From a virus: 64,000 nt of DNA. Both the position numbers and the translations under genes were made by a program. The stretch lies in IMG/VR virus record IMGVR_UViG_3300036864_000108, positions 5,755-69,754 of that record; one strand, given 5' to 3'. Numbering within the stretch: the stretch's first letter is position 1; each line of letters opens with the position of its first letter. This document shows positions 7,237 through 62,308 of this stretch, piece by piece. The notes under the pieces are model-generated. The model made no database searches. It saw only the letters and a program-made list of their open reading frames with translations, and was not told the origin of the DNA.

Positions 7237-7841
7237 GCGGCACCTCCGGTGGTCGGGTTCCCGTATCCGGCGGCGGTGAGCAGCGCGCACAACTGCGCCA
7301 AATGCAGGCGGACTGGGGCGTCATGCCAGGGCAGCGCGTCGCCGTGCAAGCCGAGCAGGTCGGAGATCCACACGATGGCCCACCAGCGCCCGCAGTTGGC
7401 GGGGCCGAATCCTTTGCGTTGGACGACGAGGATGCCGATGCGGGCGTCGACGTTGTCGCGGATTTCGTCGGTTCGTTCAAGCCATTTGCGGACCAACTCG
7501 TCGGACGCCATTCTCGCCGCGTCACCCCCTTTTATTGACCATGCCAGTCCGGGTGTGCTGGTTATGTCACCTGGGTCGGCTTGGCCGCGGAGGCGACGGC
7601 GTTCCGCTAGGGGCCAGCCGTGGGTTTGCAGGTACCGGACGACAGCCGTCTCCGTTTTCGTGCCGATCTCCCCGGACTTGTTGCGGCGCCGGGTGGCGGC
7701 CCCCTCCCCCGGGGGGAAAGCGGGGGAGGGGGCCTGGTCGGCGGCCACGGGGGGGTGATGGCTCGCCGACTTCGAACCCGCGGCGGCCGGCGACACCGTG
7801 GTCTGCCGGCGGCTGCGGGGCTTAGGGGAGATGGTGGTCAT
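7233..7841 (-). CDS. Holliday junction resolvase (PD-(D/E)XK type)
   Basis: GTKTETAVVRYLQTHGWPLAERRRLRGQADPGDI...WSIKGG...GILVVQRKG. Confidence 0.75.
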   Translation of the reverse strand: MTTISPKPRSRRQTTVSPAAAGSKSASHHPPVAADQAPSPAFPPGEGAATRRRNKSGEIGTKTETAVVRYLQTHGWPLAERRRLRGQADPGDITSTPGLAWSIKGGDAARMASDELVRKWLERTDEIRDNVDARIGILVVQRKGFGPANCGRWWAIVWISDLLGLHGDALPWHDAPVRLHLAQLCALLTAAGYGNPTTGGAA

Positions 7842-12033: not shown

Positions 12034-12357
12034 TCAGTTGCCCCCATCCTGGTCGCGTCGTTGCATGAGTGGTCGTGTGGTGGCTCGGTCGATGAGTTCG
12101 CGGGCCTGCCGCTGGTGCGGTGACAGCGCCATCTGTGTGGTGAGCGCCCACCGCTGCGCAGCGTCGCGGGCCTCGGCGGCCTCAACGTGCCGAACGATGT
12201 GGTCGGCGATGGTCTGCGGTGGGTGCCCGGCGAGTACAGCGGCGGCAGCCAGGGTGGCGGCGAAGTCCCGGTCTGTGGCTGCGGCGACCGCGGCGAGCAC
12301 GTCGGGGGTGCGGCCGACGGCGCGGAGCAGCTGGTAGCCGGAAAGTTCGGCGGTCAC
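12034..12357 (-). CDS. Hypothetical protein
   Basis: Coupled ORF. Confidence 0.45.
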   Translation of the reverse strand: MTAELSGYQLLRAVGRTPDVLAAVAAATDRDFAATLAAAAVLAGHPPQTIADHIVRHVEAAEARDAAQRWALTTQMALSPHQRQARELIDRATTRPLMQRRDQDGGN

Positions 12358-12605
12358 GGCGCACCTGCCGTCCTGTAGTGGCTGTGTGTCGCGTCGTAGA
12401 ACTGCCCGGCCGCGTTGATGATCTGCGCGGCGATCTGCAGTTGCTCTTCTACGGGCAGGTCCTCGTCGATGCTGATGTTGATCCACACGCCGGGGGAGTT
12501 CCGGAAGGTGAGGATGGGGGGGCGTTGCGGGTAGGTGTCGCATTCCGCGGCGTCGCCGTGTTCGGGGTTGAGGATCATTCCTGTGTTGAGGATCGCGGTC
12601 ATCAT
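12354..12605 (-). CDS. Hypothetical protein
   Basis: Coupled ORF. Confidence 0.5.
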   Translation of the reverse strand: MMTAILNTGMILNPEHGDAAECDTYPQRPPILTFRNSPGVWINISIDEDLPVEEQLQIAAQIINAAGQFYDATHSHYRTAGAP

Positions 12606-12675
12606 TCGCCCTCGTTCCATGCGAGATCGTTGAGCAGGTCGTGGATGGTTTGCTCGAATCGGGCTTCGACGGCGG

Positions 12676-12852
12676 TCATCGGAGCGTCCACATCACGAAG
12701 GTGATGGCGGCGGCGACGACGGCGATGAGTGCGGCGTCGAGGGCGAGGGCGGTGAGGATGCCGGCGCAGCCGCTGCCCTCCGCGTCAGGGTCGGGCTTCT
12801 CAGTGAGCCACTGCTCGTAGATTTCTCGGCCGGTGTTCGGTTCGTGTGTCAT
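12676..12852 (-). CDS. Small membrane protein
   Basis: C-terminal hydrophobic helix; strong RBS (AAAGGGAG). Confidence 0.6.
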   Translation of the reverse strand: MTHEPNTGREIYEQWLTEKPDPDAEGSGCAGILTALALDAALIAVVAAAITFVMWTLR

Positions 12853-12908
12853 GGGGTCCGCTCCCTTTCTGTTGTGGTTCACTTGCGGGTTGTGGGATCG
12901 CTCCCACC

Positions 12909-12942
12909 GCCCCGCCCCCCGTCTCGACCCGAGGGGCGGGGC
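12909..12942. terminator. GC hairpin downstream of the DGQHR gene
   Basis: GCCCCGCCCC...GGGGCGGGGC inverted repeat. Confidence 0.45.
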
Positions 12943-12951
12943 TTCCTTGGG

Positions 12952-13779
12952 TTAGAGCCGAATCCGCTTCGCCGAGTCGGCAGGTAGCCCACGGTTGTAC
13001 TGCTCCGCTACGACCTCGACGGCAGCCCGCACCGTTGAGACGCCGCGGGTGACGCTCAGCTCGACCTTCCGCTGCGCAGCCATAGCAGTGATCTGCTGCG
13101 CGGGAAGACCGCGGAGCTTGTCGTACAGCCGGTCCTCATCGACCTCGGACTTGCTGACGAAAACCTTGCTGAGCGCCTTCAGGAGCACGCTCTCCGGCCG
13201 CTCCTGATTGCCGTAGGCGCGCGCGTAGAATGTGAAGACGCGGGACAGGTGCTCCGGACCGCTGATCTCCACGTACTTGCGGCGTTCCGCGTCGCGCATG
13301 ATGGCGACACCTGCGGTGCGGTCCCGGAACGTGGAGTCTTCGGCGCGGTCGGCGACGAAGATGAACCCAGCGGACTGGGCGGCCATCTGAACATCGAGAG
13401 TGGCCTGGTCACCGGACGTCGCAAGGTTGCGGTCCCGATCGACTGCCGCCACACCAGCTCGGTCGTTGCGGCCCATGAACAGCCGCGCCTCGTCAGCCTT
13501 CGACAATCCCGCAAAGATCTCGCAGGTCACGGTGGAGACACCGTTGCCGTTAGCCCTCTTGGTGGCTTCGAGCCGATGCTGGCCGTCCAAGATGTACAGC
13601 CCGTCCTGACGCTCGGAGACGAGCAGTTCGCCGAGCAGGACGGGGGCGAAGTTGCCGATCAGCTTCCGCAGCCTCGCCGGGACGATCGCCCGCTGAACGG
13701 CGAGGTCCACCTTGACGTCGCTGACCGCGACATCAACCCCGTACTTGTGTTCCGTGTACTCGATGGGCTCCATGCCCAT
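12952..13779 (-). CDS. DGQHR-motif ParB-like protein (DUF6551-like)
   Basis: VDLAVQR...F...LLGELLVSER.DG.YILDGQHRLEA...GLS..DEA.LF...N. Confidence 0.75.
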   Translation of the reverse strand: MGMEPIEYTEHKYGVDVAVSDVKVDLAVQRAIVPARLRKLIGNFAPVLLGELLVSERQDGLYILDGQHRLEATKRANGNGVSTVTCEIFAGLSKADEARLFMGRNDRAGVAAVDRDRNLATSGDQATLDVQMAAQSAGFIFVADRAEDSTFRDRTAGVAIMRDAERRKYVEISGPEHLSRVFTFYARAYGNQERPESVLLKALSKVFVSKSEVDEDRLYDKLRGLPAQQITAMAAQRKVELSVTRGVSTVRAAVEVVAEQYNRGLPADSAKRIRL

Positions 13780-13787
13780 CTCCTCTC

Positions 13788-14696
13788 TTATTGCTGCTCC
13801 CTGACGGGAGATCCCCGCACTATGCGGGAAGCTTTCTCGGCGTCTTCAAGCTCTTTGAGCTTGGCGCCGAATTCTGCGACGAGGCCCCTCAGCTTTTTGA
13901 GGACAGATGGGAGCCGGAAGTCTGGGGCGATCAGTTTCTCGGCGCGGATAAGGTCCGCGTCCATGCCGGGGTCTTGCAGCGCCCGCGTGAGGGCGAGGAT
14001 GCATTCGCTCAGAGCCGCTTTGACGCGGTCTTGTGTCGCCAGGACTCGGGCGGGTGGCCTGGACACTTCGCGTACGGAGCCGCCGATGGCCTCATGCGAA
14101 GCGCGCCATACGGCTTCTTCGGCCTTCTGTTCGGCGCGTTTCGCGGCCTGCTTCGGCGCCGCCTTCGCGCGTTGCTTGGCGAGTTCCTCTTGTCGCTTGA
14201 TTTCTGGATCTGGCCGCAGCATGGGGGGCTTCGTCTTGGGCTTCCTAGCCTGATACGTCCTGCCATCCTCGCCAGTCCTGACGGAGTGTTGGGGAATTTC
14301 CCCAACACTCTCCATCTGGATTCGGACACGGCCGACGGTCTTATGATCACAGCCCACTAACCGGCCCACATGTCCGTCGGTGGCATCCGGCCGACGTAGC
14401 AGGTAACGCCTGATCGTTGCGCGCTTCTGGTCATTGGTTTGATGACGGCCGATGAGATTGAGCGCGAGGCTGGCGTCGAGCTTTTCGGCCTCGCTGAGTC
14501 CCGCAGGTAGTTGATGGATCGGGTATTCCGCCCCCGACTCTTCCGCGATCTGCTTGCGATGGTGTCCGTCGATCACCTCGCCGAACTCGTCCACGATCAC
14601 CGGCTGCAACACGCCGCGTTCGGCGATGTCCTCGCGGAGATCCGCATACTGCTGCTCGGTCAGCGGATCGAGGAGTTGGTACTTTGGCGCGTTCAT
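13788..14696 (-). CDS. ParB N-terminal domain protein with HTH
   Basis: PLTEQQYADLREDIAERGVLQPVIVDE...IDGHHR...N..GRH...IGRLVGCDHKTVGRVR-type HTH. Confidence 0.8.
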   Translation of the reverse strand: MNAPKYQLLDPLTEQQYADLREDIAERGVLQPVIVDEFGEVIDGHHRKQIAEESGAEYPIHQLPAGLSEAEKLDASLALNLIGRHQTNDQKRATIRRYLLRRPDATDGHVGRLVGCDHKTVGRVRIQMESVGEIPQHSVRTGEDGRTYQARKPKTKPPMLRPDPEIKRQEELAKQRAKAAPKQAAKRAEQKAEEAVWRASHEAIGGSVREVSRPPARVLATQDRVKAALSECILALTRALQDPGMDADLIRAEKLIAPDFRLPSVLKKLRGLVAEFGAKLKELEDAEKASRIVRGSPVREQQ

Positions 14697-14821
14697 GCCT
14701 TCGCCGCCTTCCTGGCTTCTCGGAAAGCCGGACCCAAGGTCAGCGCCAGTCGGTCGGCTTGCTCGGGGGTGAACGGAGGGGCGGCGTCAACGATCTGCTT
14801 GATGTACTCATCGCCGGTCAT
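14693..14821 (-). CDS. 42-aa protein (APPFTPEQ motif)
   Basis: Manual translation MTGDEYIKQIVDAAPPFTPEQADRLALTLG...; ATGA-coupled. Confidence 0.55.
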   Translation of the reverse strand: MTGDEYIKQIVDAAPPFTPEQADRLALTLGPAFREARKAAKA

Positions 14822-14946
14822 GCCGCGCCTCCTTGCTGCTCGTTGTCGAATAAGCGCCGCAGCAACGCGAGCTGCGCGGCGGTGGGCGGCGGCGCCTGCG
14901 CGAGCTGCTCACGGAGCCACTGGCTTGAGATCTGCTCCGGGGTCAT
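14818..14946 (-). CDS. 42-aa protein (APPPTAAQ motif)
   Basis: Manual translation MTPEQISSQWLREQLAQAPPPTAAQLALLRRLF...; ATGA-coupled. Confidence 0.55.
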   Translation of the reverse strand: MTPEQISSQWLREQLAQAPPPTAAQLALLRRLFDNEQQGGAA

Positions 14947-15152
14947 GACGCGGGCTCGATTTCGTCGGGGCGCAACGCGATGTCGACCGGGTTGTCTGCG
15001 GTGGTGACCCTGACGACGACCCAGTCCTCGATGGCGCCACGCAGGAAGCCGGAGTAGACCGTGCCTCGTTCGCCTCGCCAGGAACGACCGGCGATCATCC
15101 GGTCAGAGGTCACAAACACGGTGTCGCCCTCCTCGACTTGCTCTTCATCCAC
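14943..15152 (-). CDS. Small beta-barrel-like hypothetical protein
   Basis: Directly follows the cro-like gene; GD.V.V...GERGTV pattern. Confidence 0.55.
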   Translation of the reverse strand: MDEEQVEEGDTVFVTSDRMIAGRSWRGERGTVYSGFLRGAIEDWVVVRVTTADNPVDIALRPDEIEPAS

Positions 15153-15395
15153 CTACGCCACGGCCTCGCCCGAGTCGTCGGTGATGCCGTACGCGATGAG
15201 TCCCTGGTCGACGGCGACAAGGAGCCAGTCGACGATGCGGCGGGCGATCGCGGGGGACGGCTGCTTCAGCCCTGTCTCGATGTGGGATAGGTAGCTCGCG
15301 GCGATGTCGACGCCGTCGGCAAGCTCAGCCCGACTGATCTGGAGGATTTCTCGGATGGCTCGGACCTTGGGTCCGTTGAGCCTTGTGGCGTCCAT
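15153..15395 (-). CDS. Cro-like XRE HTH regulator (probably leaderless)
   Basis: LNGPKVRAIREILQISRAELADGVDIAASYLSHIETGLKQPS; divergent from the repressor. Confidence 0.85.
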   Translation of the reverse strand: MDATRLNGPKVRAIREILQISRAELADGVDIAASYLSHIETGLKQPSPAIARRIVDWLLVAVDQGLIAYGITDDSGEAVA

Positions 15396-15551
15396 GTCGG
15401 CAAGAGTAGGCAAGGTTCGGCAGGAGTGTCAACAGGAATCTTCGTGTACAAGCTAGAGTCGGCAGGAATCTGGCAACATCTGCCGACAGTGACCCGCCGA
15501 CTTACGGCAAGGGTTGCGGAAGTTGACGACTCTTCTGCCATCATGTGCTTC
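15396..15551. promoter_or_regulatory. Genetic switch: leftward promoter and repeated operator half-sites
   Basis: Minus strand TTGACA-N18-TACTCT-N7-ATG(cro); repeated (TC)GGCA(A/G)G units about 10-11 bp apart; inverted repeat GTCGGCAG..CTGCCGAC at 15458-15487. Confidence 0.75.
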
Positions 15552-15992
15552 GTGACTGACCGTGACGTGACGCAGGTGGGCGCGCTTGTAGCCACTCGGC
15601 GCGGTGAACTGGGTTTGACTCAGCAGGAGCTAGCCGACGCAGCGAACGTCGCTGTCGGCACCGTGGTCGCTCTCGAGAGTGGACGTCGCTGGCCTCAGGC
15701 CGCGAAACGGTCCGCGATCGAACGGGCGCTGCGCTGGGCGAGCGGTGACCTGGTGCGGCTCCGGAACGGCGGTACCGCAACATCACTACCGCAGCGGGTC
15801 GACCTGGGGCACGGCATCACGGTCGACGTGGACGAGGAGACCGACCCGGAAGCGTTGCGCCGGTCGCTTGCGCTGGCGCTGAACGAGGACATCACCTGGG
15901 AAGACGCAATGGACAAACTGGACGCGATCGCGGATCTGCATGGGGAGCTGCGGGCGATCCTGCGGAAGCTGCGTCCCCCGAACGGCGGTTGA
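15552..15992 (+). CDS. Immunity repressor (XRE HTH)
   Basis: RRGELGLTQQELADAANVAVGTVVALESGRRWP....RSAIERALRW; start GTG at 15552 is inferred. Confidence 0.85.
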   Translation: MTDRDVTQVGALVATRRGELGLTQQELADAANVAVGTVVALESGRRWPQAAKRSAIERALRWASGDLVRLRNGGTATSLPQRVDLGHGITVDVDEETDPEALRRSLALALNEDITWEDAMDKLDAIADLHGELRAILRKLRPPNGG

Positions 15993-16046
15993 CAGGTAAA
16001 GAAGTTTGCGAACCTGTAACGCGGGGGTCACTGCGCACGGTAGACA

Positions 16047-16294
16047 TGGAGCAGACGCGCCGTAACTCGCGGGCGACGCGACGGGGGCCCGCCATCGCAC
16101 CACCACGGTCGTCGAGCCGGGCAACACCAGCTCGAAGATGGAGGGTTCTCACGGTGATCGTCACAACCGCGCCCATCCGCGACGCCGCTGTTTTGGTCCA
16201 CCGGGAAACCGGAAAGATCCTGGTGTTCCGGGACGACGGGACGGTCAGCGAGAAGATCGTGATCCTGCTGGGCAGGCTCCTCCGCCGGATCTAA
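16047..16294 (+). CDS. Hypothetical protein downstream of repressor
   Basis: Open frame; start uncertain. Confidence 0.4.
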
Positions 16295-16295
16295 C

Positions 16296-16670
16296 TCACG
16301 GGCACAACGGGTGGCCAGGGTTGCCTACGCAGAACTGGCCGGGGTTCGCCGTGTAGTCCTGCAACTCGGCGTCGGTGTAGTCGCCCGCGTTCGGGTCGAT
16401 ACCGCTGTCCGATGGGACCGTGTCGGGGATGGTCGTGTCCGTGGTAGGTGTCTGTATCGCTTCGTTCACGGAGTTGAAGAGGCTCACCCCGGCGATGACG
16501 GCGAGGAAGCCGAGGATCAACGCGGCGGTCATGAGGATGATCGCTTCGCTGAGGGCGATGATGCTGAGTGCGCGTAGCCACTTGTCGGCGCGGGTCCGCT
16601 GCTCGGGGATGCGTTCGACGACGGGCGTGAGGATCTGGGGGGACTGGTCGGTGATGGTCGTGTCGGTCAT
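16296..16670 (-). CDS. Membrane protein
   Basis: Long hydrophobic segment followed by a Thr/Asp-rich tail with C..C. Confidence 0.65.
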   Translation of the reverse strand: MTDTTITDQSPQILTPVVERIPEQRTRADKWLRALSIIALSEAIILMTAALILGFLAVIAGVSLFNSVNEAIQTPTTDTTIPDTVPSDSGIDPNAGDYTDAELQDYTANPGQFCVGNPGHPLCP

Positions 16671-16741
16671 GGCGGGGGGTCCTTATTCAGTTGTGGTGCT
16701 CGGGTTGTGTGCGGCGAGGTACTGGTCGATGGCTTGACGGA

Positions 16742-16981
16742 TCACGTCGGACCGTTTGACGCGGGCTGCGGGCTCTTCTTCCTTGGTCGTCCGCCGCCGG
16801 CGCCGCGCCCCGGTCTAGACGCTTGCCACGCCTTGATGGTGTGCGGGTGCCAGCCGGGGGACCGGCCTAACGTGATGTCGGGGGGCGGGAACGTGGGGTC
16901 GCGGACCCGGTAGCGGGACACGCTGCGCGGGTCGACGCCGAGCATGTGGGCGACGGCGGCCATGTCCAGATAGGCGGTCAT
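16742..16981 (-). CDS. AlpA-like HTH protein
   Basis: YLDMAAVAHMLGVDPRSVSRYR....FPPPDITLGRSPGW...TI..W...RPGRGAGGGRPRK. Confidence 0.8.
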   Translation of the reverse strand: MTAYLDMAAVAHMLGVDPRSVSRYRVRDPTFPPPDITLGRSPGWHPHTIKAWQASRPGRGAGGGRPRKKSPQPASNGPT

Positions 16982-17241
16982 CTGGTTGTGACGTCCACGA
17001 AGACTTCATCGTCATCGACGCCGTAGGTCTTGCCGTACGCCTGCCGCGCAATCCGCTTTGCATCTGCGGCGTTGTCGGCTGCGATCCAGTACTCGTGGCG
17101 CGGGTAGTCCCAACCGGAGCAAACGGCGTGGTAGTTGCCGTTCAGGTCCATGCGGGGTGTGTCAAGCGTGGTGGCCATGGGGCCGCCTCCTTCCTTGGGG
17201 TTGTGGCTGGGGGTGACGACGGCCTCGATGTGCAGGTTCAT
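16978..17241 (-). CDS. Hypothetical protein (alternative start 17178, MATTLDT)
   Basis: Coupled ATG at 17241 plus an internal strong RBS and ATG. Confidence 0.55.
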   Translation of the reverse strand: MNLHIEAVVTPSHNPKEGGGPMATTLDTPRMDLNGNYHAVCSGWDYPRHEYWIAADNAADAKRIARQAYGKTYGVDDDEVFVDVTTR

Positions 17242-17381
17242 GAGATGACCTCCTGGATCAAGTGATCGCAGTGGCAGGCATCTAGCTTTTGGACGCCTGC
17301 GAGCCAGTGCTCAGCGGCATCTCGTGTGGGGAATGGGCGGGACGTGTAGTCGTCGCAGACGACTACGTACCGGGCGCTCAT
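17238..17381 (-). CDS. 47-aa Cys-containing protein
   Basis: Manual translation MSARYVVVCDDYTSRPFPTRDAAEHWL...CHCDH; ATGA-coupled both sides. Confidence 0.55.
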   Translation of the reverse strand: MSARYVVVCDDYTSRPFPTRDAAEHWLAGVQKLDACHCDHLIQEVIS

Positions 17382-17659
17382 GAGAGCGCCCGGGTGGTCT
17401 CAAGAACCGTCCCGTACTGAGAGACGATACGGACGGACCGGAAGATGGTCGCCTCGTCGGCGGCCACGTTGCGCAGCCACTCGGGGGTGGTGCCGCTGGC
17501 GACGGAGGTCCAGCGCCCGTCCTGGCGGACCTGCACGTAGGCGGTGAAGGGCAGGACACCGGAGACGGTGTGGGTGTCGAGTGTGGTGGCCATGGGGCCA
17601 CCCCCTTTCGGGGTTGTGGCCGGGGCGGTTCCCCGGCCAGGGTATGTTGTCTGCGTCAT
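17378..17659 (-). CDS. Hypothetical protein (leaderless start 17659; alternative start 17593, MATTLDT)
   Basis: ATG 7 nt after the -10 box; internal RBS and ATG. Confidence 0.55.
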   Translation of the reverse strand: MTQTTYPGRGTAPATTPKGGGPMATTLDTHTVSGVLPFTAYVQVRQDGRWTSVASGTTPEWLRNVAADEATIFRSVRIVSQYGTVLETTRALS

Positions 17660-17666
17660 GTAGACA

Positions 17667-17695
17667 ACGATAGGGCACCCAGCCACCCCTGTCAA
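17667..17695 (-). promoter_or_regulatory. Housekeeping-sigma promoter
   Basis: TTGACA-N17-TATCGT-N7-ATG. Confidence 0.8.
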
Positions 17696-17713
17696 GACTC
17701 GGCGACAAAGTTT

Positions 17714-19129
17714 CTAACGCCAGTCGACCTGGAGTCGGTGCGGGTTGAACCTGCGCGGCCCCTCGTGTGGTCGCACCCTGATCGCGGCGAACAGGCCGCG
17801 GGCAGCGATCCGCTTCTGCTCCGCCGTGAACCGGTCCCACCGCGCGGCGATGTCGTCACCTTCAAGGTTGCGGAGCAGCCTGGGCGGGTGGGCCAACTTC
17901 CGGCGCGCCACCGCCAACCTGCCCTCGATCGGGCGGCGGGCCTCGATCCACTCGGCGAACCCAATCAGCCGCTCCCCGTGCGCCCGGGCCAGGTCGCGGA
18001 GCTGTCGCTCGTCAGCGGCCATCTCCGCGCGCACAGCCTCGATGGCCGGGTCGGGGGTGGTGTCGCGGAGCCGCTGCCACGCCGCCGGGTCCGACGCCCA
18101 CGCGACGATCAACCGACCCACATGCTCATGCACCGGCTCAGCGTTGATCGCGATCCGCCCGCACCCGCCGAGATGCTTGGCGCATACGTAGCGTCGCTTC
18201 CCTTCGCGGGCCTGACCGGCGGAGAAGCCTTTCAGGGCGTGCCGGCACAGCCCGCAGCGGAGCGTCCCGGACAGCCAGTAGACGAGCCCGATGCGGTCGC
18301 TGCTCGCACGGTCGGCGAGGACCGCGCACAGCTCCTCCCACACGTCCCGGTCCAGGATGGCGGGCCACACAGCCTGCCCGATGATCCGCTTCTGGTGGGT
18401 GCGCAGCCCGGCGACCCTCGGCTTCGTCACGGCCGCCTTCAGCGCCCGGTCGGTCCACGGGCCGCCCTGCACCGTGGGGACTCCACGCTGGTTGAGATCC
18501 TTGACGATCCGGTAGAGGGGGTCACCGGCGAGGATCTTCGTGGCGGACTCAAGGATCACCTGCGCCTCACTGTCGTCGACGGTGACCCGGTCGTTCTTGT
18601 ATCCGTAGGGGCGGATGCCGCCGCCGCCGTACTTCCCTTCGGCGGCGAGATCCTCGTGTTTGCGTCGCACCCGCCTCGCCGTGTCACGGCTGGACTTGTT
18701 GTTCATGGCGGTGACGACCCTGGCCATCGCCACGCCCGCGTCGGTCGACAGATCGAGGCTGCCAGTGACCGCACGGTTGGGGATCAAATGCTGCTCCACC
18801 ACGTCGATCAGGTCCTCAAGGTCCCGCATGTCGCGGACGCACCGGTCAATGTCGTAGACGATCAGACCGTCGCGGTGACCGGAGTCAAGGTCGTCCAGTA
18901 GCCGCCGGAACTCGGGGCGGACCACACGTTTCGCCTTGCGACCGTCCGGGAGGACGATTTGGCGGCGCCGGTAGGCGGACACGTTCTGCTCGACGTACAC
19001 CTCGGCGATGCCCCAGCCGATGGCGGCGCCGAGTGACCGGCCGTCTTTCTCCTGCCGGTCCACACCCGCCAGGTCGTCGTCGCGGGCGTCGGACATGCGG
19101 ACGAGCAGTGCGGCGCGTCGCGGGGTCAC
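17714..19129 (-). CDS. int: Large serine recombinase (integrase)
   Basis: ALLVRMSD, GV.RQ, E.NVSA, RPEF..LL, YDIDR..R, PYGY, recombinase domain, LSG.LRCGLC zinc ribbon, coiled coil. Confidence 0.95.
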   Translation of the reverse strand: MTPRRAALLVRMSDARDDDLAGVDRQEKDGRSLGAAIGWGIAEVYVEQNVSAYRRRQIVLPDGRKAKRVVRPEFRRLLDDLDSGHRDGLIVYDIDRCVRDMRDLEDLIDVVEQHLIPNRAVTGSLDLSTDAGVAMARVVTAMNNKSSRDTARRVRRKHEDLAAEGKYGGGGIRPYGYKNDRVTVDDSEAQVILESATKILAGDPLYRIVKDLNQRGVPTVQGGPWTDRALKAAVTKPRVAGLRTHQKRIIGQAVWPAILDRDVWEELCAVLADRASSDRIGLVYWLSGTLRCGLCRHALKGFSAGQAREGKRRYVCAKHLGGCGRIAINAEPVHEHVGRLIVAWASDPAAWQRLRDTTPDPAIEAVRAEMAADERQLRDLARAHGERLIGFAEWIEARRPIEGRLAVARRKLAHPPRLLRNLEGDDIAARWDRFTAEQKRIAARGLFAAIRVRPHEGPRRFNPHRLQVDWR

Positions 19130-19201
19130 GCTCCGCTATGGTAGTCGTAACGTAGCGTCGGGCCGCGTACTCCACTGATGGCATACACAGGGTTGGCATA
19201 T
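19130..19201. other. Candidate attP / divergent promoter region
   Basis: AT-richer gap 5' of int with only weak dyad symmetry (catacac..atatatg); call is mainly positional. Confidence 0.3.
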
Positions 19202-19996
19202 ATGAGTCCAAGACGGACAACGGGACTGGTCGCCGCCGCCCGTGTCGTCATCACGACGGTCGCCGCGGTCGCCGCGATCATCGCCTCGTTTGTGTTCCTC
19301 CGCGGTCTGGCCGCCAGCACGGGTTGGCCTGGGTGGACTGGGTTGCTGTTACCGATGTCGGTGGATGCGCTCGCCGCGTCAGCGTGGCTCACCTACTGGA
19401 TCAGCGAGCCGGGGCAGCGTCGGTTCGCTGGGTGGGTGGGTGCGGCCGCCACCACCGCGAGCCTGGCTGGTAACGCCTTGTCGCATCTGCTTGTGACCGG
19501 GCAAGTCCACGCCGGATGGTTCCTGGTCGCCGTTGTGGGTTCGGTCCCAGCAGTGTCGCTGGCGCTGGTCGTGAAGATGGCGGTACCGGATCAGCCTGGC
19601 CCGGTATCACTGCGAGTGGAGGGTAGTACCAAACTCGCTACAAACTCGGCGCCGCGGGTTGGGCCCGGCGGTTCCGGGGCCGCAGCGGATGGACCGGATC
19701 GCACTGTGGGGGTCGACGGGTCCGGGACCGCCGGTACCAGCAACAGTGACAGCCCGGACCTGGTGCCGGTCAAGACCCCCGGTCAGCCGGTACCAGTACC
19801 CGTCGAGGTCCCCCCGCCTCCGAGTGCTGGTACCGGCGCCAGTGAGGCGGCGCTGTTGAACCGGTTCCTGGCCTCCGGGCGGGTACCGACGGTCGCGAAC
19901 GTGCAGGACGTGTGCGAGGTGTCCCGCCGTCAGGCCCTCAAGTTGGCCCCCCAGTTCAAGACCGTCATCGGTTCCGGTAACGGTCACGGCGAGTAG
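19202..19996 (+). CDS. DUF2637 / Spd-like membrane protein with C-terminal HTH
   Basis: Four TM helices: A.IASF..L..LA...G....LLP.SVD....SLAGNA.SH....VGSVPAVSL; Pro-rich linker; C-terminal PTVANVQDVCEVSRRQA. Confidence 0.8.
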   Translation: MSPRRTTGLVAAARVVITTVAAVAAIIASFVFLRGLAASTGWPGWTGLLLPMSVDALAASAWLTYWISEPGQRRFAGWVGAAATTASLAGNALSHLLVTGQVHAGWFLVAVVGSVPAVSLALVVKMAVPDQPGPVSLRVEGSTKLATNSAPRVGPGGSGAAADGPDRTVGVDGSGTAGTSNSDSPDLVPVKTPGQPVPVPVEVPPPPSAGTGASEAALLNRFLASGRVPTVANVQDVCEVSRRQALKLAPQFKTVIGSGNGHGE

Positions 19997-20010
19997 GGAG
20001 GGCGGACGAC

Positions 20011-20199
20011 ATGCCGTTCGGGTTCCGCAAATCGTGGCGGTTCGGGTCCCGCAACCTGCACCTGCGGTTGAACGCGTCCAGGAGCGGCGCGTCCTGGACG
20101 CTGAAGGTGGGGCCGTGGTCGTGGAACACAAGGCAGCGTCGGCACCGGGTTGATCTGCCGGGTCCCGCGTACTGGCAGTCACGGGGGCGTCGGCGGTGA
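20011..20199 (+). CDS. DUF4236-like small basic protein
   Basis: MPFGFRKS.RFG...RLNASRSGASW..KVGP..WN.......DLPGP.YW. Confidence 0.75.
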   Translation: MPFGFRKSWRFGSRNLHLRLNASRSGASWTLKVGPWSWNTRQRRHRVDLPGPAYWQSRGRRR

Positions 20200-20672
20200 C
20201 CGTGCTCACGTCGCGGCGTCACCGGCTGCCCAAGGGTGTGACCGTCGATGACCTGGACTTGCGTTGGCTGATCCCGCGTCACCGTGACCAGTTGGCAGCG
20301 GGGAAATTGCGGGTCCCGGATCAGGCGAACCACTTCCGGGACGGACACCCGGCCACGTTGGTCAGCGTCCCGGACGGGTTCGGTTGCCCCGTCGCGTGGA
20401 TCGACGTGGAGATCGCCGAGCTGATCTGGCGGCTGAACCGGGTTGGTGTCGACACTTTGGAGTGCTGCCAGGGAGGCGGGTACGACGTTTGGGGTGGTCG
20501 CGGTTCGGCGTACATCGCGTTCCCCGGTCCCACCCAGTGCAACCGCTTCCTCGCCCTCGCCGAGGATGCGCTGCGCGGTGAGGAAGTCGAACGCAGCTAT
20601 GGCCGGTCCCGTGTCGTCCGGTTCCCACACTCGCAGGTGCGCCGGATCACCCGGACAGTGAGGAACGCCTAG
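20196..20672 (+). CDS. Hypothetical protein
   Basis: IDVEIAELIWRLNRVGVDTLECCQG....AYIAF; coupled. Confidence 0.6.
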   Translation: MTVLTSRRHRLPKGVTVDDLDLRWLIPRHRDQLAAGKLRVPDQANHFRDGHPATLVSVPDGFGCPVAWIDVEIAELIWRLNRVGVDTLECCQGGGYDVWGGRGSAYIAFPGPTQCNRFLALAEDALRGEEVERSYGRSRVVRFPHSQVRRITRTVRNA

Positions 20673-20675
20673 CCG

Positions 20676-22658
20676 ATGGCCCGCCGCCTGGGTACCACGG
20701 TGCGCCGCGCCTCCACCGACGCGCGCACCGGCAGACATCCGCGCCCCTCACCGGAGGTGGGCCCGTTCGTCGCCCTCGCCGTGCTGGCGGTCCCCGCCGG
20801 GTTTGGGCTGCACTACGCGTGGGGCCGGACCCTGCCTGACGCGGCGGTCGCGGCGTCCGCGGTCAGCTTGGCCACCGTCGGCTTGTTCACGTTGACGGCG
20901 GTGCATGCGAGGCCCCGCCCGACGGTGCAACGTTGGCAGGCCGCCGGGTCAGTTGGGGTGTCGGGGGCTGTGTTGCTGCTGCTGCTGATCGTCGGCTGGT
21001 CGTGGTCCGCCCTGTCCGTCGCCGGGTTCGCGGTGGCGGTGAACACGGCCGCGTGGCTGCTGTTCCGGTCCAACGTGGTCCGCGGCGACGGTACCGACGA
21101 GCAGGAGGCGGGGGAGGACCGCACCGCCGTGGCGCTCGGTATCGAGGGGGCGAAGGCGCGGAAGGTCCACGAGGACGACGACAAGGTCGTCACGAAGATT
21201 CGGCCCGCGCTCGGCCAGTCACACAAGGACGTGCAGAAGATCGCGGAACCGTTGGCGACAGCCACACATGCGCCGGTCGGCGGGGTCCGGGTCCCCGTCA
21301 ACCCGGCCGACGCGGGGGACATCACCGTCGTCCGCATGAAACGCGACGTGCTCCACGACACCATCCTGTGGCCCGGCCCATCCAACCTTGGCGGCACGTT
21401 CGCCGATCCGCTGGAGGTGGGGCGGCGGGAGGATGGCACGGTCGCCCGCCTATGGTTCCCCGGCCGGCACACACGTTCCGGCACCCACCTGCTGATCATG
21501 GGCATGTCCGGGTCGGGTAAAGGCGAGTCGTTCCGGGTCACCGCCGCTGAGATCATGACCCGCCGGGATGTCCTTTTTTGGCTGATCGACTATGCGAAAC
21601 CGTGGCAGACCGCCCGCGGCATCGTCGGCGGGCTCGACCTGTTCGCCACCAGCAAAGCGGACGCCGGCCAGGTGATCGCGCATCTGCGGAAGTTCATCCC
21701 GTACCGGTCCCGGAAGCTGGGGCAGGCCGGGTGGGACCAGTGGGACGAGGACTGCCCCGTCCCCGCGATCGTCGTGTGGATCGAGGAGGCCGCGGAACTG
21801 TTCGCCGCCGACGAGCAGTGGGTGGAGCATCTGCCGCGGCTGGCTGAGCAGTGCCGTTCGGTGGGCGTGTTCCTCGTCTACTCGATTCAGCGGGCGCACT
21901 CCGCGAACATGGACACGAACGTCCGCGCCCAGCTCGGCGCCGGCTGGTGTTTCGGCGTCGATGGTGGCCGGGACGCCGAGTTCTGCCTGTCCCCCGTCAC
22001 CCTCGCGGCTGGCGCGGACCCGTCGTGGGGTAACAAGCGGGTCGGGTACGCCTACCTTGAGGCCCCGGGTATTGACGAGCAGGACTGGTCGCAGAAGATG
22101 CGCGGCTACCTCGCCAAACATGAGCAGCTAGTGGAGACGGTCGCGTCGGCTACTGACATCCGCTGCCCCGGTCTGCCCCCCGACGAGGCGGCGTTCTGGG
22201 GTGACATCTACACACGGTTGCACACCATCCAGTCCAATCCATCGGAGGCCCTGGTGCCCATCGAAGACCTCGCTGACGAGGACGGCTACGACGACACGAT
22301 CGTCCCGGTCGACCCGGAGTTGAAAGACGAAATCGACCCGTCGGAGCCGATCCTCCCGTATGACCCGGCGCGGGACGGCCCGGACATCGAGTTCCCGGAG
22401 CTCGTGTTCGACCCGAAGGAGTTGACGGCGGAGGAGGTGCGGGACGAGTTCGACAAGATGCTGCGGAAGTTGGCCGAGGAGGGGATCACCACAGTCAACA
22501 CGGTACTGCTGATGGAGCGGTGGCCGTACCGGAAACGCCCGTGGATTTCCAAGCAGATGAAGCGGCTGGAGAAGGCCGGTCAGGTGGAGCGGTACCAGGA
22601 ACGCCCGTTCGCGGAGGCTGAGTGGCGGCTGGTAGCCCTAGTGAGCGCCGCGCAGTGA
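20676..22658 (+). CDS. traB: TraB-type FtsK/SpoIIIE conjugative dsDNA translocase
   Basis: N-terminal TM helices; HLLIMGMSGSGKG (Walker A); IVVWIEEA (Walker B); RSVGV.LV.S.QRA; AGADPSWGNKRVGYAYL..PG; C-terminal wHTH RKRPWISKQMKRL as in Streptomyces plasmid TraB. Confidence 0.9.
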   Translation: MARRLGTTVRRASTDARTGRHPRPSPEVGPFVALAVLAVPAGFGLHYAWGRTLPDAAVAASAVSLATVGLFTLTAVHARPRPTVQRWQAAGSVGVSGAVLLLLLIVGWSWSALSVAGFAVAVNTAAWLLFRSNVVRGDGTDEQEAGEDRTAVALGIEGAKARKVHEDDDKVVTKIRPALGQSHKDVQKIAEPLATATHAPVGGVRVPVNPADAGDITVVRMKRDVLHDTILWPGPSNLGGTFADPLEVGRREDGTVARLWFPGRHTRSGTHLLIMGMSGSGKGESFRVTAAEIMTRRDVLFWLIDYAKPWQTARGIVGGLDLFATSKADAGQVIAHLRKFIPYRSRKLGQAGWDQWDEDCPVPAIVVWIEEAAELFAADEQWVEHLPRLAEQCRSVGVFLVYSIQRAHSANMDTNVRAQLGAGWCFGVDGGRDAEFCLSPVTLAAGADPSWGNKRVGYAYLEAPGIDEQDWSQKMRGYLAKHEQLVETVASATDIRCPGLPPDEAAFWGDIYTRLHTIQSNPSEALVPIEDLADEDGYDDTIVPVDPELKDEIDPSEPILPYDPARDGPDIEFPELVFDPKELTAEEVRDEFDKMLRKLAEEGITTVNTVLLMERWPYRKRPWISKQMKRLEKAGQVERYQERPFAEAEWRLVALVSAAQ

Positions 22659-22700
22659 GGGGCTGGGGAGGTTTCTACGTCCCCGTAGGGGACGGGGGGC

Positions 22701-22788
22701 GGAACACGGGGCGGAACACGGTGCGGAATACGAGGGGAACGCGGGCCGGAACGCGACGGAACACGGTAAGGAACACGGACGGAACACG
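22701..22788 (+). repeat. Array of eight 8-bp direct repeats, putative clt / TraB recognition sequences
   Basis: GGAACACG at 22701, 22713, 22758, 22770, 22781; GGAATACG at 22725; GGAACGCG at 22736, 22748; spacing 10-12 bp; just 3' of traB. Confidence 0.85.
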
Positions 22789-22803
22789 ACGACAGGAGAG
22801 GTC

Positions 22804-23151
22804 ATGACCGACGTTTCGATCTTCGACACCGAATTGAAGCGCACCTCGGACTACCTGGAGTACTTGGAGAAGCTGCGGCATCACGGGAAGGACTTGGCGG
22901 ATGCGATCAACACGACGGCGGGGCTGCTGGAGTTGAAGCTGCGGGCGCATGTCCGTGCGAACTCGGGCAGGTACGGCGGCGCGAACGCGTACAACACGGC
23001 CCGGCTGGCGATGAAGCCGGTGAAGCATGCGGGCGGGTCGGCGCAGGAGATCGCGAATTCGGCGCGCGCCGCGTTGATCATCTATCAGCGTCGGATCGTG
23101 ACCCCGTACATGGAGGAGCCGGTCAAGTCACCATTCGACGTCGAACACTGA
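22804..23151 (+). CDS. TraA-like plasmid transfer accessory protein
   Basis: Helical 115 aa, A..TARLAMKPVKHA......A; position next to traB; RBS CAGGAGAGG. Confidence 0.55.
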   Translation: MTDVSIFDTELKRTSDYLEYLEKLRHHGKDLADAINTTAGLLELKLRAHVRANSGRYGGANAYNTARLAMKPVKHAGGSAQEIANSARAALIIYQRRIVTPYMEEPVKSPFDVEH

Positions 23152-23195
23152 CGTAGCCGTCTGTGTCTGGCGCGTGTCATGCTGGAGACTGAACT

Positions 23196-23501
23196 GTGAG
23201 CGAGGACAAGACCATGGACGTGCAAGCCGAGTGGGACGGCCAGCCCTTCGCCGACCTGCGCACCACTGGCCTGTTGTGGCTGATCAACGCCAGCGTGTTC
23301 CACCCCCGCGGCTACGCCTTGGCGTTGCATTCCGACGAATCCGGGGACTGCGTCGGCTGGTCACTGCTAGGCGACGGGTCCGAACCGTGGACGTTCCCGG
23401 ATGACTGCGACGCCGAGTTCACTGCCGCGTCCCGCCTATTCGCAGGCCCTGAACCGGGGACCGCTGCGACGTCGAAGCCCGCGGGTTCCTCGCCGAGTTG
23501 A
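23196..23501 (+). CDS. Hypothetical protein
   Basis: LRTTGLLWLINASVFHPRGYALAL......GW.LLGDG.EPW.F. Confidence 0.65.
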   Translation: MSEDKTMDVQAEWDGQPFADLRTTGLLWLINASVFHPRGYALALHSDESGDCVGWSLLGDGSEPWTFPDDCDAEFTAASRLFAGPEPGTAATSKPAGSSPS

Positions 23502-23525
23502 CCAACCGCAGGTGGGAGGTTCGCT

Positions 23526-23876
23526 GTGCGTGAGTTGGAGCGGGAGCACGCCCGCCTGTCGGCTGCCCGGGCGTTGGGGGAACGGCATCCGCATTGGTAT
23601 CTGCATCGCGGCATGGTGTGGTGGGTCGTGTTCAGCGCGGCGGTGATCGGCGCTGTGTTGTGGGCGGGACGTGAGGGCGCCGCGGTGCTGGCCCGGGTGG
23701 ACGCCCCGTCGATGCCCCGCCTGTCGCTGCCGGACTTGCCGGGTGTGCCGTGGCTGACCGTGGCCTGGGTAGTCGCGGTGCTTGCGGTGGTCGGGCTGGC
23801 GGTGTGGTTGTGGCACCGCCGGTCCTACGGGTTGCCGTGGCGGTACCGGCTGCGACGCCTGTTCCGGCGGTACTGA
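23526..23876 (+). CDS. Two-TM membrane protein
   Basis: Two hydrophobic helices, basic C-terminus, RBS GGAGG. Confidence 0.6.
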   Translation: MRELEREHARLSAARALGERHPHWYLHRGMVWWVVFSAAVIGAVLWAGREGAAVLARVDAPSMPRLSLPDLPGVPWLTVAWVVAVLAVVGLAVWLWHRRSYGLPWRYRLRRLFRRY

Positions 23877-23888
23877 CCCCCAGACACG

Positions 23889-23927
23889 AAAAACGCCGCC
23901 GCTCCCCCCGAGGGGAGCGGCGGCGTA
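23889..23927 (-). terminator. Intrinsic (likely bidirectional) terminator between converging transfer and lysis units
   Basis: ACGCCGCCGCTCCCC-ccga-GGGGAGCGGCGGCGT with a T-run on the minus strand. Confidence 0.85.
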
Positions 23928-23955
23928 ATGACCCGCCAGAAGGGCGTGGCCGAGT

Positions 23956-24252
23956 CTAGCGGGGCGGCGGCCCAGGGTCGTCGATGACCCCACCCAAGTC
24001 GCGGACGCCTTTTTCGAACCGGCCGATCCGGTGCGGCGGCAGCGTCGGCGGCGCGTTGCTTTTCGTCAGGTACCCGGCTGCCCATGCCACCGCACCGACC
24101 AGGGCGGCGGCCAGCGCCGGGTCCAGTGTGTAGCCGAGCGCGTCGGCGACGAGGACGAGGATGGTGGCGGCGACACCGGTGATCCCGGTGGCGGCCATTT
24201 TGCGGGTGGGCGCGGCCGACGGCTGACTCACCTTCCGGTGGGTGCTCACCAC
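23956..24252 (-). CDS. Holin
   Basis: QPSAAPTRKMAA, two TM helices, ..AGYLTK; last gene of the lysis unit. Confidence 0.7.
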   Translation of the reverse strand: MVSTHRKVSQPSAAPTRKMAATGITGVAATILVLVADALGYTLDPALAAALVGAVAWAAGYLTKSNAPPTLPPHRIGRFEKGVRDLGGVIDDPGPPPR

Positions 24253-24422
24253 GTTGTCAGCCGAAGTCGCATATTGGGGCTGTGCGTCACGTCGGGGCCG
24301 TGAACGCAGCCGGCGTGCGGGGGCCGGTCGTCGAACTGGACGGGTTGGCCTTCGTCGATCACCCGGTCGATGTTCTCATCGGGGGTGTCGGGCTCGTCAA
24401 ACTCGTCGGTCGGCCCGGTCAT
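24246..24422 (-). CDS. Small acidic protein in lysis cassette
   Basis: Manual translation MTGPTDEFDEPDTPDENIDRVIDEG...; coupled both sides. Confidence 0.45.
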   Translation of the reverse strand: MTGPTDEFDEPDTPDENIDRVIDEGQPVQFDDRPPHAGCVHGPDVTHSPNMRLRLTTW

Positions 24423-24916
24423 GCGACGCCTCGTCTCGCCGCCTCGTCGTTTGTCGCCACCGAGATGCGGGCAACGTCAGCGTCGGACAGCCCAGCCAGC
24501 CCCTTGTCGAGGAGAGCCTGCGCCAACGCGGCCTCGTCCACGTCCCCGGCCGGCTGGGCGGCGAGCGCGTCCAGTTTCGCGCCGAGGCCAGTCAGGTCCG
24601 GCGCGCCCGCCTTGACGATCGCAGCTGCGGACGTCTTCAGTGCGTCGAGCTCGGCCTGGGTGATCTGGGTGGTGGTGTCGTGCGCGATGTGCGCCTTCCG
24701 TAGCGCGTTCAGGACGGCCATGCTGGACAGGCCGTACACCAGTCCGGGGCCGACGAGGTACTGGTTGGCGTTGCCGGTGACTTGCACGCAGGCCAACCTG
24801 GGGCCGTGGGTTGCTGCCACGATTTCCCTCCTGATCGCCGCGACGAGGGTGGTGAGCATCCACTGCTGGTCGGCCGTGTTGAGGGTCATGGGCGTGATTG
24901 CTTCGGGTGCCGTCAA
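24419..24916 (-). CDS. Non-catalytic endolysin C-terminal-like / scaffold subunit
   Basis: N-terminal TLNTADQQWML helix; helical C-terminus DVDEAALAQAL....LSDADVARI..A..DE.ARR resembling actinophage lysin tails. Confidence 0.6.
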   Translation of the reverse strand: MTAPEAITPMTLNTADQQWMLTTLVAAIRREIVAATHGPRLACVQVTGNANQYLVGPGLVYGLSSMAVLNALRKAHIAHDTTTQITQAELDALKTSAAAIVKAGAPDLTGLGAKLDALAAQPAGDVDEAALAQALLDKGLAGLSDADVARISVATNDEAARRGVA

Positions 24917-24929
24917 CGTGTGCCTCCTG

Positions 24930-25448
24930 TCAGGTGACTGCGGTGGGGGCGAACGTGCCGGTCAGCCACGCCTTGTCGGCGCCGGTCAGCGACCGGGGCG
25001 GCGGGGTGAACGGGAACCGTGCCCACGAGGGGCGGGGATGGTAGTCGCGGCCCATGCGGGCGAGCCCGTCGTAACCGGCGTCGTAGAACTGCACCTGTTC
25101 CTGCGCCGCACCGGCGAGACCGGGTTCGTCGCGGACGATCACATGGATGTGGGGGTCGAACCCGCCGTGCGCAGCGTCGCGGTACCAGGCGGGGCCGCCG
25201 CAGCGGCGACGCAGCTCCACAACGAGCGGTTCGATTTTGGCGGCGGGGAGGTTCCAGGTGCGCAGGTCCGCGGCCCCGCCACCGGAGTGTGTGCCGGCGC
25301 TCGCCGAACCGGAAGCCCAGGAGCCTTGGACGACGACGATGACGGCCGGGTCGATTCCGGCTGCGGCGGCTGCGGCGTCGATGATCGCGTTCACCCGGCG
25401 GGTGACGGTCCCCAGGTTGCGGGTGACCCGCTCACCGGCCCAGGTCAT
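24930..25448 (-). CDS. Endolysin catalytic subunit, M15-like zinc peptidase
   Basis: QGSW....SAGTHSGGGAADL...AWYR.....FDPHIH; Q...YDAGYDGL. Confidence 0.8.
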   Translation of the reverse strand: MTWAGERVTRNLGTVTRRVNAIIDAAAAAAGIDPAVIVVVQGSWASGSASAGTHSGGGAADLRTWNLPAAKIEPLVVELRRRCGGPAWYRDAAHGGFDPHIHVIVRDEPGLAGAAQEQVQFYDAGYDGLARMGRDYHPRPSWARFPFTPPPRSLTGADKAWLTGTFAPTAVT

Positions 25449-40220: not shown

Positions 40221-40342
40221 TCGTCGTCTTCGTCTTCCGGCTCAGGCTCCTGCTCAACGTCCTCGACCGCTTCTGCAGCCGTCTTGGCTGCTTCTTCCGC
40301 GGCCACGTCGGCGGGCTGCCGCGGGTCCCCAGGTACCGTCAT
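40217..40342 (-). CDS. 41-aa acidic protein
   Basis: Manual translation MTVPGDPRQPADVAAEEAAK...EDEDDE; RBS GGAGG; coupled. Confidence 0.5.
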   Translation of the reverse strand: MTVPGDPRQPADVAAEEAAKTAAEAVEDVEQEPEPEDEDDE

Positions 40343-62307: not shown

Positions 62308-62308
62308 G

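Follow-up and report, generated by a model that had tools for sequence, protein, structure and literature searches.

A plasmid-type TraB gene and a candidate clt repeat array in a metagenomic siphovirus genome: a putative transfer unit with precedents in pFP4 and pFP3

Results

A seven-gene unit between the integrase and the lysis genes

The IMG/VR virus record IMGVR_UViG_3300036864_000108 is one contig of 69,754 bp, of which bases 5755-69754 were analysed; this stretch of 64,000 nucleotides is called the window below, and all coordinates follow its numbering. Between the gene for a large serine recombinase and the end of the late operon lies a unit of seven + strand genes, which diverges from the integrase and ends at a hairpin that it has in common with the convergent lysis genes (Table 1). 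The unit consists, in this order, of a DUF2637 protein, a DUF4236 protein, an open reading frame (ORF) of 158 amino acids (aa), a 660-aa protein of the TraB family, an array of direct repeats, and ORFs of 115, 101 and 116 aa. A first-pass annotation of the window had described a co-directional island between the serine integrase and the lysis terminator, and every feature that it listed was found in its place. All seven ORFs are open with a codon bias like that of the phage, and the third-position GC content (GC3) of the last two is coding-like. A sigma-70 promoter scan of the unit returned 0 sites, such a scan being uninformative for high-GC actinomycetes.

TraB is a divergent member of the actinomycete plasmid family

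Residues 25-643 of the 660-aa protein align with positions 7-627 of the 639 in the NCBIfam model plasmid_TraB (NF041214), and the FtsK model on the same protein gives 0.0028. Its identity to the TraB/Tra proteins of 51-55 actinomycete plasmid records, pSN22, pJV1 and pWTY27 among them, is 26-35%. By a Kyte-Doolittle hydropathy scan, which is a simple measure and not a dedicated predictor, the hydrophobic segments lie between residues 27 and 130. The Walker B pair E370 and E371 and the QR motif Q405 and R406 are invariant across three alignments (A1-A3). The C-terminal 109 residues (552-660) are modelled by AlphaFold2 as a winged helix with the element order H-E-H-H-E-E, at a predicted local distance difference test score (pLDDT) of 84.2. 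The top Foldseek matches of this part are the winged helices of ArsR, MarR, LexA, DtxR and ScpA, the best with an E-value of 1.7e-3 and none at or below 1e-3. The earlier description as a full-length TraB with membrane segments, Walker B motif and predicted winged helix stands; the Walker A motif that it included needs correction, the motif in residues 276-285 being GSGKG in place of GK[S/T].

The Ser/Thr of a Walker A motif normally helps to bind Mg-ATP. GKG at this place recurs in 5 of the 155 TraB-family representatives of our protein library (P0001, P0084, P0093, P0106 and P0107), and the family may tolerate it as another form of the P-loop. HMMER on the same library returned 678 TraB cluster representatives, the closest full-length one being 40% identical (P0009). 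A word search gave P0001 as the nearest homologue, at 51% identity and with the length and all motifs kept; furthermore, the library holds a TraB fragment that is 98% identical (P0008). When TraB was used as a single-protein query, a scan of viral contigs found no close relative, a genome scan nothing above 36% identity, and a metagenome scan distant FtsK-like pieces only.

A FastTree phylogeny of 118 rows was built, with library proteins taken from the first 69 representatives and with fragments and rows outside 560-820 aa excluded; it contains no chromosomal actinomycete FtsK, and its outgroups are 6 distant FtsK-like proteins. All 112 actinomycete TraB rows, including the TraB of pSN22, are split from these outgroups with a support of 100. 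The window TraB pairs with P0001 within a clade of 29 rows (support 99) made up of metagenome proteins and one IMG/VR element, and the TraB of pSN22 lies in the sister group of this clade. A profile search and phylogeny had been proposed as a check on the assignment, and on both the protein falls within the conjugative TraB family, apart from the distant FtsK-like outgroups. We conclude that the window TraB, judging from its sequence, is full-length and belongs, as a divergent member, to the TraB family of actinomycete plasmids.

A clt-like array follows traB

Eight direct octamers begin 42 nt past the traB stop codon (offsets 42-122), are spaced by 10-12 nt and all lie on the + strand. In the first register, 7 copies with at most one mismatch are found at 22700-22787, plus one copy with two mismatches. 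Shifting the register brings the count to 8, whereas none of 30 random segments of 280 nt exceeds 5, which bears out the 8-bp repeat array announced after traB. Exact copies of the octamer number 8 in the whole 64 kb, a total at chance expectation (4.75 +/- 2.1); 4 of them fall within the 88 nt of the array and 4 are scattered. With up to one mismatch, 7 octamers lie inside 88 nt, against a background of about 1 per kb on both strands.

Similar arrays stand right after traB in pSN22 (8 copies), in pRL1 (7 copies) and at many other loci, including those of several phage-linked TraBs, each with a motif of its own. According to PMC4447253 and PMC3583192, clt regions contain direct 8-bp repeats to which the cognate TraB binds; TraB is by itself sufficient for transfer, and the spd genes are responsible for spread within the mycelium. 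We regard the array as a candidate clt-type site, with an octamer that is new as a candidate recognition motif.

The accessory genes of the unit

For the first gene the DUF2637 assignment is confirmed, whereas its start moves to 19178, the earlier start at 19202 being the second in-frame ATG. The protein has two long hydrophobic segments (residues 14-49 and 110-137) and is a candidate partner of the Spd type in spread or pore formation. Its family is present in 6 of 12 TraB-bearing IMG/VR records; the 251-aa ORF that follows traB in pSN22 reaches a sub-threshold 12.3 bits against DUF2637. The DUF4236-like protein reported for the second gene is indeed one, and no such gene stands beside TraB in any of 5 comparison records.

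For the 158-aa ORF the best atlas score is 0.89, with all named families at or below 0.83. It occupies the slot directly upstream of traB that a TraA homologue holds in pSN22, pRL1, pFP3 and pFP4, but the window has no such homologue there; as a TraA candidate the ORF was rejected, hhalign against a TraA alignment giving a probability of 0.2%. The TraA-like gene that the first-pass annotation had placed at 22804-23151 is weakly supported. On the one hand, its 115-aa product has atlas feature scores of 0.93, 0.91 and 0.90 to TraA-like clusters of PF28214, with a structural TM-score of 0.72 by query, and hhalign against a four-sequence TraA alignment gives a probability of 24% (E 8e-4, 105 columns). 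On the other hand, BLASTP against the TraA of pSN22 and a search of NCBIfam gave no match. A word-based homologue search with this ORF returned only itself. For the 116-aa protein, a Spd-like role is a guess. When the six accessory proteins were compared by BLAST with pSN22, pRL1, pFP3, pFP4 and 12 IMG/VR loci, nothing significant was found save a weak DUF2637 match in one IMG/VR locus (L012).

The unit and the phage are one molecule

Contiguity was assessed in one soil-metagenome run that holds all sampled words of the region, and in its independent Logan assembly. A single Logan contig of 42,569 nt covers positions 13465-30000 with 0 differences and no gap, and the depth is 18-27 in all 30 bins. 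Island and phage also match in composition (GC 0.680 versus 0.663; GC3 0.850 versus 0.821 +/- 0.053; tetranucleotide z = -0.2). Given that a second assembler's contig spans both island edges (~19.2 and ~23.9 kb) at flat depth and that the composition agrees, the island is not a chimera, the possibility of which had been raised with the first-pass annotation. Short "joints" in the read table, with sides of about 20 letters, were treated as stray matches from other organisms.

A search for flanking att-like direct repeats gave only matches of chance size (at most 23 nt at 75-88% identity). The record holds a single integrase, with one PF07508 match, and no tyrosine integrase (PF00589) was found in it. 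Since there is one integrase and no att-like pair, the island is not an independent nested element. The earlier statement that a second integrase, an att pair and a rolling-circle Rep are lacking holds, but "no Rep" has to be qualified by the Prim-Pol and AAA_25 genes at 1-1814, one of three replicase types in AICEs, the integrative and conjugative elements of actinomycetes. Rep_1, Rep_trans and RepAM were not found in the record, in a search where the controls for two of these families were also unmatched.

Comparison with pFP4, pFP3 and other known systems

Like the window, pFP4 (NC_017833.1, 40,949 bp, circular) and pFP3 (NC_023067.1, 34,083 bp) carry a full tailed-phage structural module, and in both, as in the window, a + strand unit of the form DUF2637-x-x-TraB-x converges on the end of the virion operon. 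The annotation of pFP3 lists tail, tape-measure, capsid, protease, portal and terminase genes, a tyrosine integrase, ParA, DnaB and GntR; its + strand run begins with WhiB and continues to DUF2637, two ORFs, FtsK/SpoIIIE (TraB) and one further ORF, facing the end of the tail genes. Both elements carry an integrase and pFP4 has Prim-Pol and DUF927; the window, too, has an integrase and Prim-Pol. Between pFP3 and the window, the large terminase (TerL) is 41%, the small terminase (TerS) 43% and TraB about 30% identical. In PMC4170104, pFP4 is cited as an episome that conjugates and also forms infective particles. The joining of a phage with TraB is thus not new, these Streptomyces plasmid-phages being precedents of a little-known kind, and the novelty first claimed for the window was overstated.

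What is new in the window, by comparison with pFP4 and pFP3, is a serine instead of a tyrosine integrase; the lack of ParA, of a GntR-type TraR and of the upstream WhiB genes; a TraB of a different major clade, with a GKG Walker A motif; an octamer of its own; and a larger genome (~70 kb versus 34-41 kb). Another element, pZL12/ZL12, is reportedly both a Streptomyces plasmid with a transfer locus and a source of phage particles (Zhong et al. 2010, J Bacteriol 192:3747). PMC4487206 presents pZL12 as a well-characterised plasmid with phage-particle genes and ParA/ParB. Compared by description only, pZL12 is an autonomous, par-bearing plasmid of 90 kb, whereas the window has integration genes and no par.

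The Streptomyces plasmids pSN22, pSVH1, pJV1, pWTY27 and pIJ101 share with the window the TraB family and its domain order, a repeat array immediately 3' of the translocase gene with a spacing of about one helical turn, and small membrane-protein genes in the traB operon. They differ in that the window TraB is 27-30% identical to theirs, that TraR is missing from the window and its accessory genes are not recognisably homologous, and that the unit resides in a virion-encoding phage of ~70 kb rather than in plasmids of 10-15 kb.

According to Ghinet et al. 2011 (PMC3218068), AICEs are recognised by Int, a Rep (RepSA, RepAM or Prim-Pol) and a Tra of the FtsK/SpoIIIE kind. The window has an Int (serine), Prim-Pol and TraB on one molecule. 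However, its Prim-Pol (1.2-1.8 kb) and traB (20.7 kb) have the integrase (17.7-19.1 kb) between them, an arrangement excluded in that study, and it has ~40 kb of virion and lysis genes, while the model AICEs named in a review abstract, at 10.9-17.3 kb, are several times smaller. Phage-plasmids such as P1, VP882 and others unite phage and plasmid traits (PMC12282955). They are maintained in the manner of plasmids and move as particles; in the window, by contrast, it is the transfer machinery that is plasmid-derived, and maintenance looks integrative. A literature search found no paper on a chromosome-integrating phage with TraB and clt; the supplements of PMC3218068 and PMC9513070, which may list AICEs with phage genes, lay outside that search.

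TraB in other phage records

A survey for records with both traB and terL had been suggested, and it showed the combination to recur: among the 12 TraB-bearing IMG/VR records, 6 have a phrog_9 terminase, 5 a phrog_10 capsid and 8 a TerL or a capsid. The TraBs of phage-linked records occupy at least five places on the tree. A serine integrase is present in 0 of these 12 other records. GntR passes the cut-off in 2 of the 12, compared with 3 of 4 reference plasmids (pSN22, pFP3 and pFP4), and phage-borne TraB may be under a control other than GntR.

The distantly related provirus G008 (L023-L025) has in common with the window a TerL of 45% identity, TerS, an adaptor and two early genes, and carries TraB at its edge. 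Read as a circle, its order of TraB, tail, adaptor, capsid, TerL, TerS and early genes is like that of the window, yet its TraB belongs to another clade and is 28.5% identical to the window TraB. The conserved order with a TraB of a different clade suggests a conserved "slot" in which TraB modules have been swapped.

A further record, L013 (identical to G005), is 16,955 bp long with direct terminal repeats and has TraB (7421-9283, - strand), a phrog_9 terminase (12228-13757) and an ORF of 1003 aa that combines Phage_portal and prohead-protease domains. On the tree, the TraB of L013 shares the 29-row clade with that of the window. The sequence of this record gives it the look of a miniature phage-like circle that carries a conjugation pump.

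The phage backbone

The record is a linear IMG/VR virus record with a CheckV completeness of 87% and no terminal direct or inverted repeat; no tRNA was found in it. The window has a GC content of ~66%, and 99 genes were called on the basis of codon bias, almost all of them on the - strand. The right 40 kb form a late region of ordinary siphovirus type in which virion and lysis ORFs are intact, a head-tail adaptor gene being recognised there by the PHROG search. The first-pass description of uninterrupted terminase, portal, capsid, tail and endolysin genes is borne out by PHROGs. Besides the genes of Table 1, the left part encodes nucleases, a methylase and ParB-like proteins, the ParB_N-like match being weak (18.9 bits, under the cut-off). 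Candidate starts of the integrase are ATG 19096 and GTG 19129.

Table 1. Features of the window, with positions, strand and supporting matches
Feature	Positions	Strand	Evidence or remark
DUF2637 membrane protein, first gene of unit	19178-19996	+	PF10935, 25.5 bits (cut-off 22.8)
DUF4236 small basic protein	20011-20199	+	PF14020, 34.5 bits (cut-off 27)
158-aa hypothetical protein	20196-20672	+	no family in Pfam, NCBIfam or PHROGs
TraB, FtsK-like membrane dsDNA translocase, 660 aa	20676-22658	+	NCBIfam plasmid_TraB NF041214, 1.7e-114
clt-like array, eight direct octamers	22700-22788	+	consensus CGGAACAC / GGAACACG
115-aa helical protein, weakly TraA-like	22804-23151	+	atlas, hhalign
101-aa hypothetical protein	23196-23501	+	phrog_3954 (unknown function), 2.2e-6
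116-aa protein, two hydrophobic segments, last gene of unit	23526-23876	+	no family match
Stem-loop, perfect 15-bp stem	23893-23926		T-run on - strand; separates convergent + unit and - lysis/late operon
Large serine recombinase (integrase)	17714-19129	-	Resolvase 3e-18, Recombinase 4.3e-11, Zn_ribbon_recom 8.8e-6; phrog_95 3.4e-79
HTH_3 repressor-like gene	15543-15992	+	PF01381, 2.9e-8; divergent from - strand early genes
Replication genes	1-1814	-	AAA_25 helicase-like (PF13481, 1.8e-27) overruns window start
Prim-Pol	1158-1814	-	PF09250, 2.3e-31
Lysis cluster, holin-like through endolysin	23956-26053	-	PHROGs
Holin-like gene	23956-24252	-	phrog_9284, 1.5e-6
Endolysin	25445-26053	-	phrog_13480, 4.9e-28
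Tape measure, 1539 aa, peptidase and transglycosylase domains	32897-37516	-	several PHROGs, e.g. phrog_27166, 9e-30
Head/packaging genes	58378-63658	-	PHROGs
Major capsid, HK97-type	58378-59841	-	phrog_10, 1.6e-37
Prohead protease	59841-60719	-	phrog_80, 6.2e-33
Portal	60777-62165	-	phrog_12, 1.4e-25
Large terminase	62309-63658	-	phrog_9, 1.5e-53

Among isolated phages, the nearest terminases, 32-35% identical to the window TerL, come from actinophages of Gordonia, Rhodococcus and Arthrobacter that are very small (14-17 kb), and the best plasmid matches of this TerL are Streptomyces plasmids, pFP3 among them. For the capsid, more than 2000 homologues were found at E<=1e-10, many of them 70-79% identical on soil contigs of 45-108 kb; one relative of 73% identity is labelled as coming from a Streptosporangiaceae metagenome-assembled genome. 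Naming the host from this label and from the Streptomyces plasmid matches was considered and set aside, the two being insufficient. Capsid-related records share with the window the head genes and a few tail genes only, their other genes being unrelated, and with so little shared, insertion boundaries of the island are impossible to draw from them.

Several other features of the backbone were observed. Two small - strand ORFs downstream of the integrase (16978-17241 and 17378-17593) are 85% identical over a 54-nt start region and have a common N-terminal peptide; they are a local duplication. The segments 43686-44824 and 48962-49479, in two - strand tail/neck ORFs, are repetitive and mutually similar (64-74% identity), and are probably Gly-rich fibre repeats. 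Glycosyltransferase and methyltransferase genes lie within the structural operon at 39171-41397 and 55676-57824 (phrog_34859, phrog_14945, phrog_21658 and phrog_32762). Between the endolysin and the tail genes, a + strand ORF of 118 aa (26175-26531) has, by eye only, the look of an Lsr2-type nucleoid protein.

Discussion

With a probability of roughly 55%, we consider the unit to be a working, self-directed device for transfer and spread of the phage genome, as in pFP4, its activity being something that we infer from what is known of the family. The window would then be most of the genome of a temperate siphovirus of a filamentous soil actinomycete. Built into this phage, between the integrase and the end of the late operon, would be a seven-gene transfer unit of the kind found in Streptomyces plasmids and AICEs, transcribed separately and in the direction opposite to all lytic genes. 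TraB would enter the membrane through its N-terminal segments and form a ring, its C-terminal winged helix would dock on the eight phased octamers downstream of traB, and its ATPase would pump circular phage dsDNA, either unintegrated or excised, across hyphal walls and septal cross-walls. The DUF2637 protein and the small membrane proteins would serve as spread partners. Through such pumping, the phage genome would reach neighbouring hyphae and compartments without particles and would integrate there by means of the serine integrase. Expression of the unit, DNA binding, ATPase activity despite the GKG motif and any transfer are all steps that we infer.

A more specific form of this proposal, which we offer tentatively and hold to be somewhat doubtful, is that of a chromosome-integrating "conjugative prophage", at once a virion-forming temperate phage and a self-transmissible AICE, whose circle of ~70 kb would be pumped by its own TraB with a GKG P-loop on the previously undescribed octamer GGAACACG. 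Pumping would take place after excision by the serine integrase or before integration. Given that the classical TraR kil-kor control is lacking, transfer of a conjugative prophage would fall under the lysogeny circuit of the phage.

Several observations weigh against a working transfer device. The NF041214 score of TraB, 383.7 bits, is less than half of the 800-bit equivalog cut-off, so that by the rule of NCBI the protein is a divergent homologue and not an equivalog. At the Walker A position, 97 of the 118 tree rows have Ser or Thr and 2 (the query and P0001) have Gly, the remaining 19 being outside the search pattern. For the helper genes, homology to characterised Spd proteins could not be demonstrated. 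No GntR-type TraR/Kor regulator was found in the record, and unregulated traB is described as toxic in PMC4447253. ParA (AAA_31) was not found in the 69.7-kb record either, a record that is ~87% complete; without ParA, nothing points to a stable plasmid state as a starting point for conjugation, nor is there any sign of a stable circular form that would permit transfer from a donor without lysis. TraB is carried by 0 of 17 IMG/VR records with a capsid of 55-95% identity, four of which are 64-100% complete, and the module is hence accessory and not part of the core of the lineage. Finally, the DNA and proteins of the island matched nothing among 50,697 deposited phage records (INPHARED), which is weak evidence of rarity.

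Some of these points have also to be considered under other explanations of the unit. It could be that the module works but does not move the phage genome, being cargo for lysogenic conversion that is expressed from the prophage and either mobilises chromosomal or plasmid DNA of the host through clt-like sites, or excludes or interferes with plasmids, AICEs and phages that use the same route. A position next to the integrase and on the strand opposite to the lytic genes is typical of genes expressed from a prophage, among phages with these head genes the module counts as accessory, and mobilisation of chromosomal markers is reported for TraB-type plasmids (PMC3218068). Nevertheless, the cognate array lies on the phage itself, directly 3' of traB, which is a signature of self-transfer, and self-conjugation is cited for pFP4, whose layout is the same (PMC4170104). 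In addition, no defence family was found in the unit, although none was tested for and the PADLOC library was not searched. We therefore regard cargo of this kind as unlikely.

Still less probable, in our view, is a fragment captured from a plasmid or AICE which, inactive or in decay, rides along as passive mosaic cargo, its altered Walker A motif marking the loss of ATPase activity. The GKG motif, the missing TraR, helper genes in which BLAST recognises no Spd or TraA homology, the absence of TraB from head-module relatives and the score under the curated cut-off are all in line with such a fragment. Against decay, the seven ORFs are open with phage-like codon bias, the eight repeats are intact and phased, and a TraB fragment of 98% identity exists in the protein library. 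Furthermore, GKG is kept in P0001, at 51% identity and together with every other motif, and its recurrence in 5 of 155 representatives along with this retention speaks for a variant that is tolerated and under selection, and not for decay. As for an assembly artefact in which a phage contig was joined with a piece of an AICE or plasmid, the record does come from a metagenome assembly, lacks terminal repeats and is contained in a single run, possibly the source sample itself. Yet the contig of a second assembler crosses both edges without a difference and at flat depth, the composition is uniform, the convergent gene ends share one terminator hairpin, and the same layout exists in the complete plasmids pFP3 and pFP4; the chance of an artefact is accordingly very slight.

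The value of the window is limited in that the design has published precedents. It adds to these precedents an integrative example with a serine integrase, without ParA or TraR, and with a TraB of a divergent clade and a new candidate octamer. Since its divergent TraB is combined with an octamer of its own and a GKG motif, the specificity of TraB for its repeats and the need for the Walker A serine become directly testable.

If the module works, the boundary between phages and conjugative elements would be blurred in filamentous actinomycetes beyond two laboratory plasmid-phages. One genome would then possess two independent routes from host to host: particles, which depend on a receptor, and TraB, which depends on contact and not on a receptor. 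As a conjugative prophage, the phage could colonise mycelium that is resistant at the receptor or walled off. Such a dual route would have consequences for host range, for spread within a compartmented mycelium, for gene flow among antibiotic producers and for the classification of contigs as "viral".

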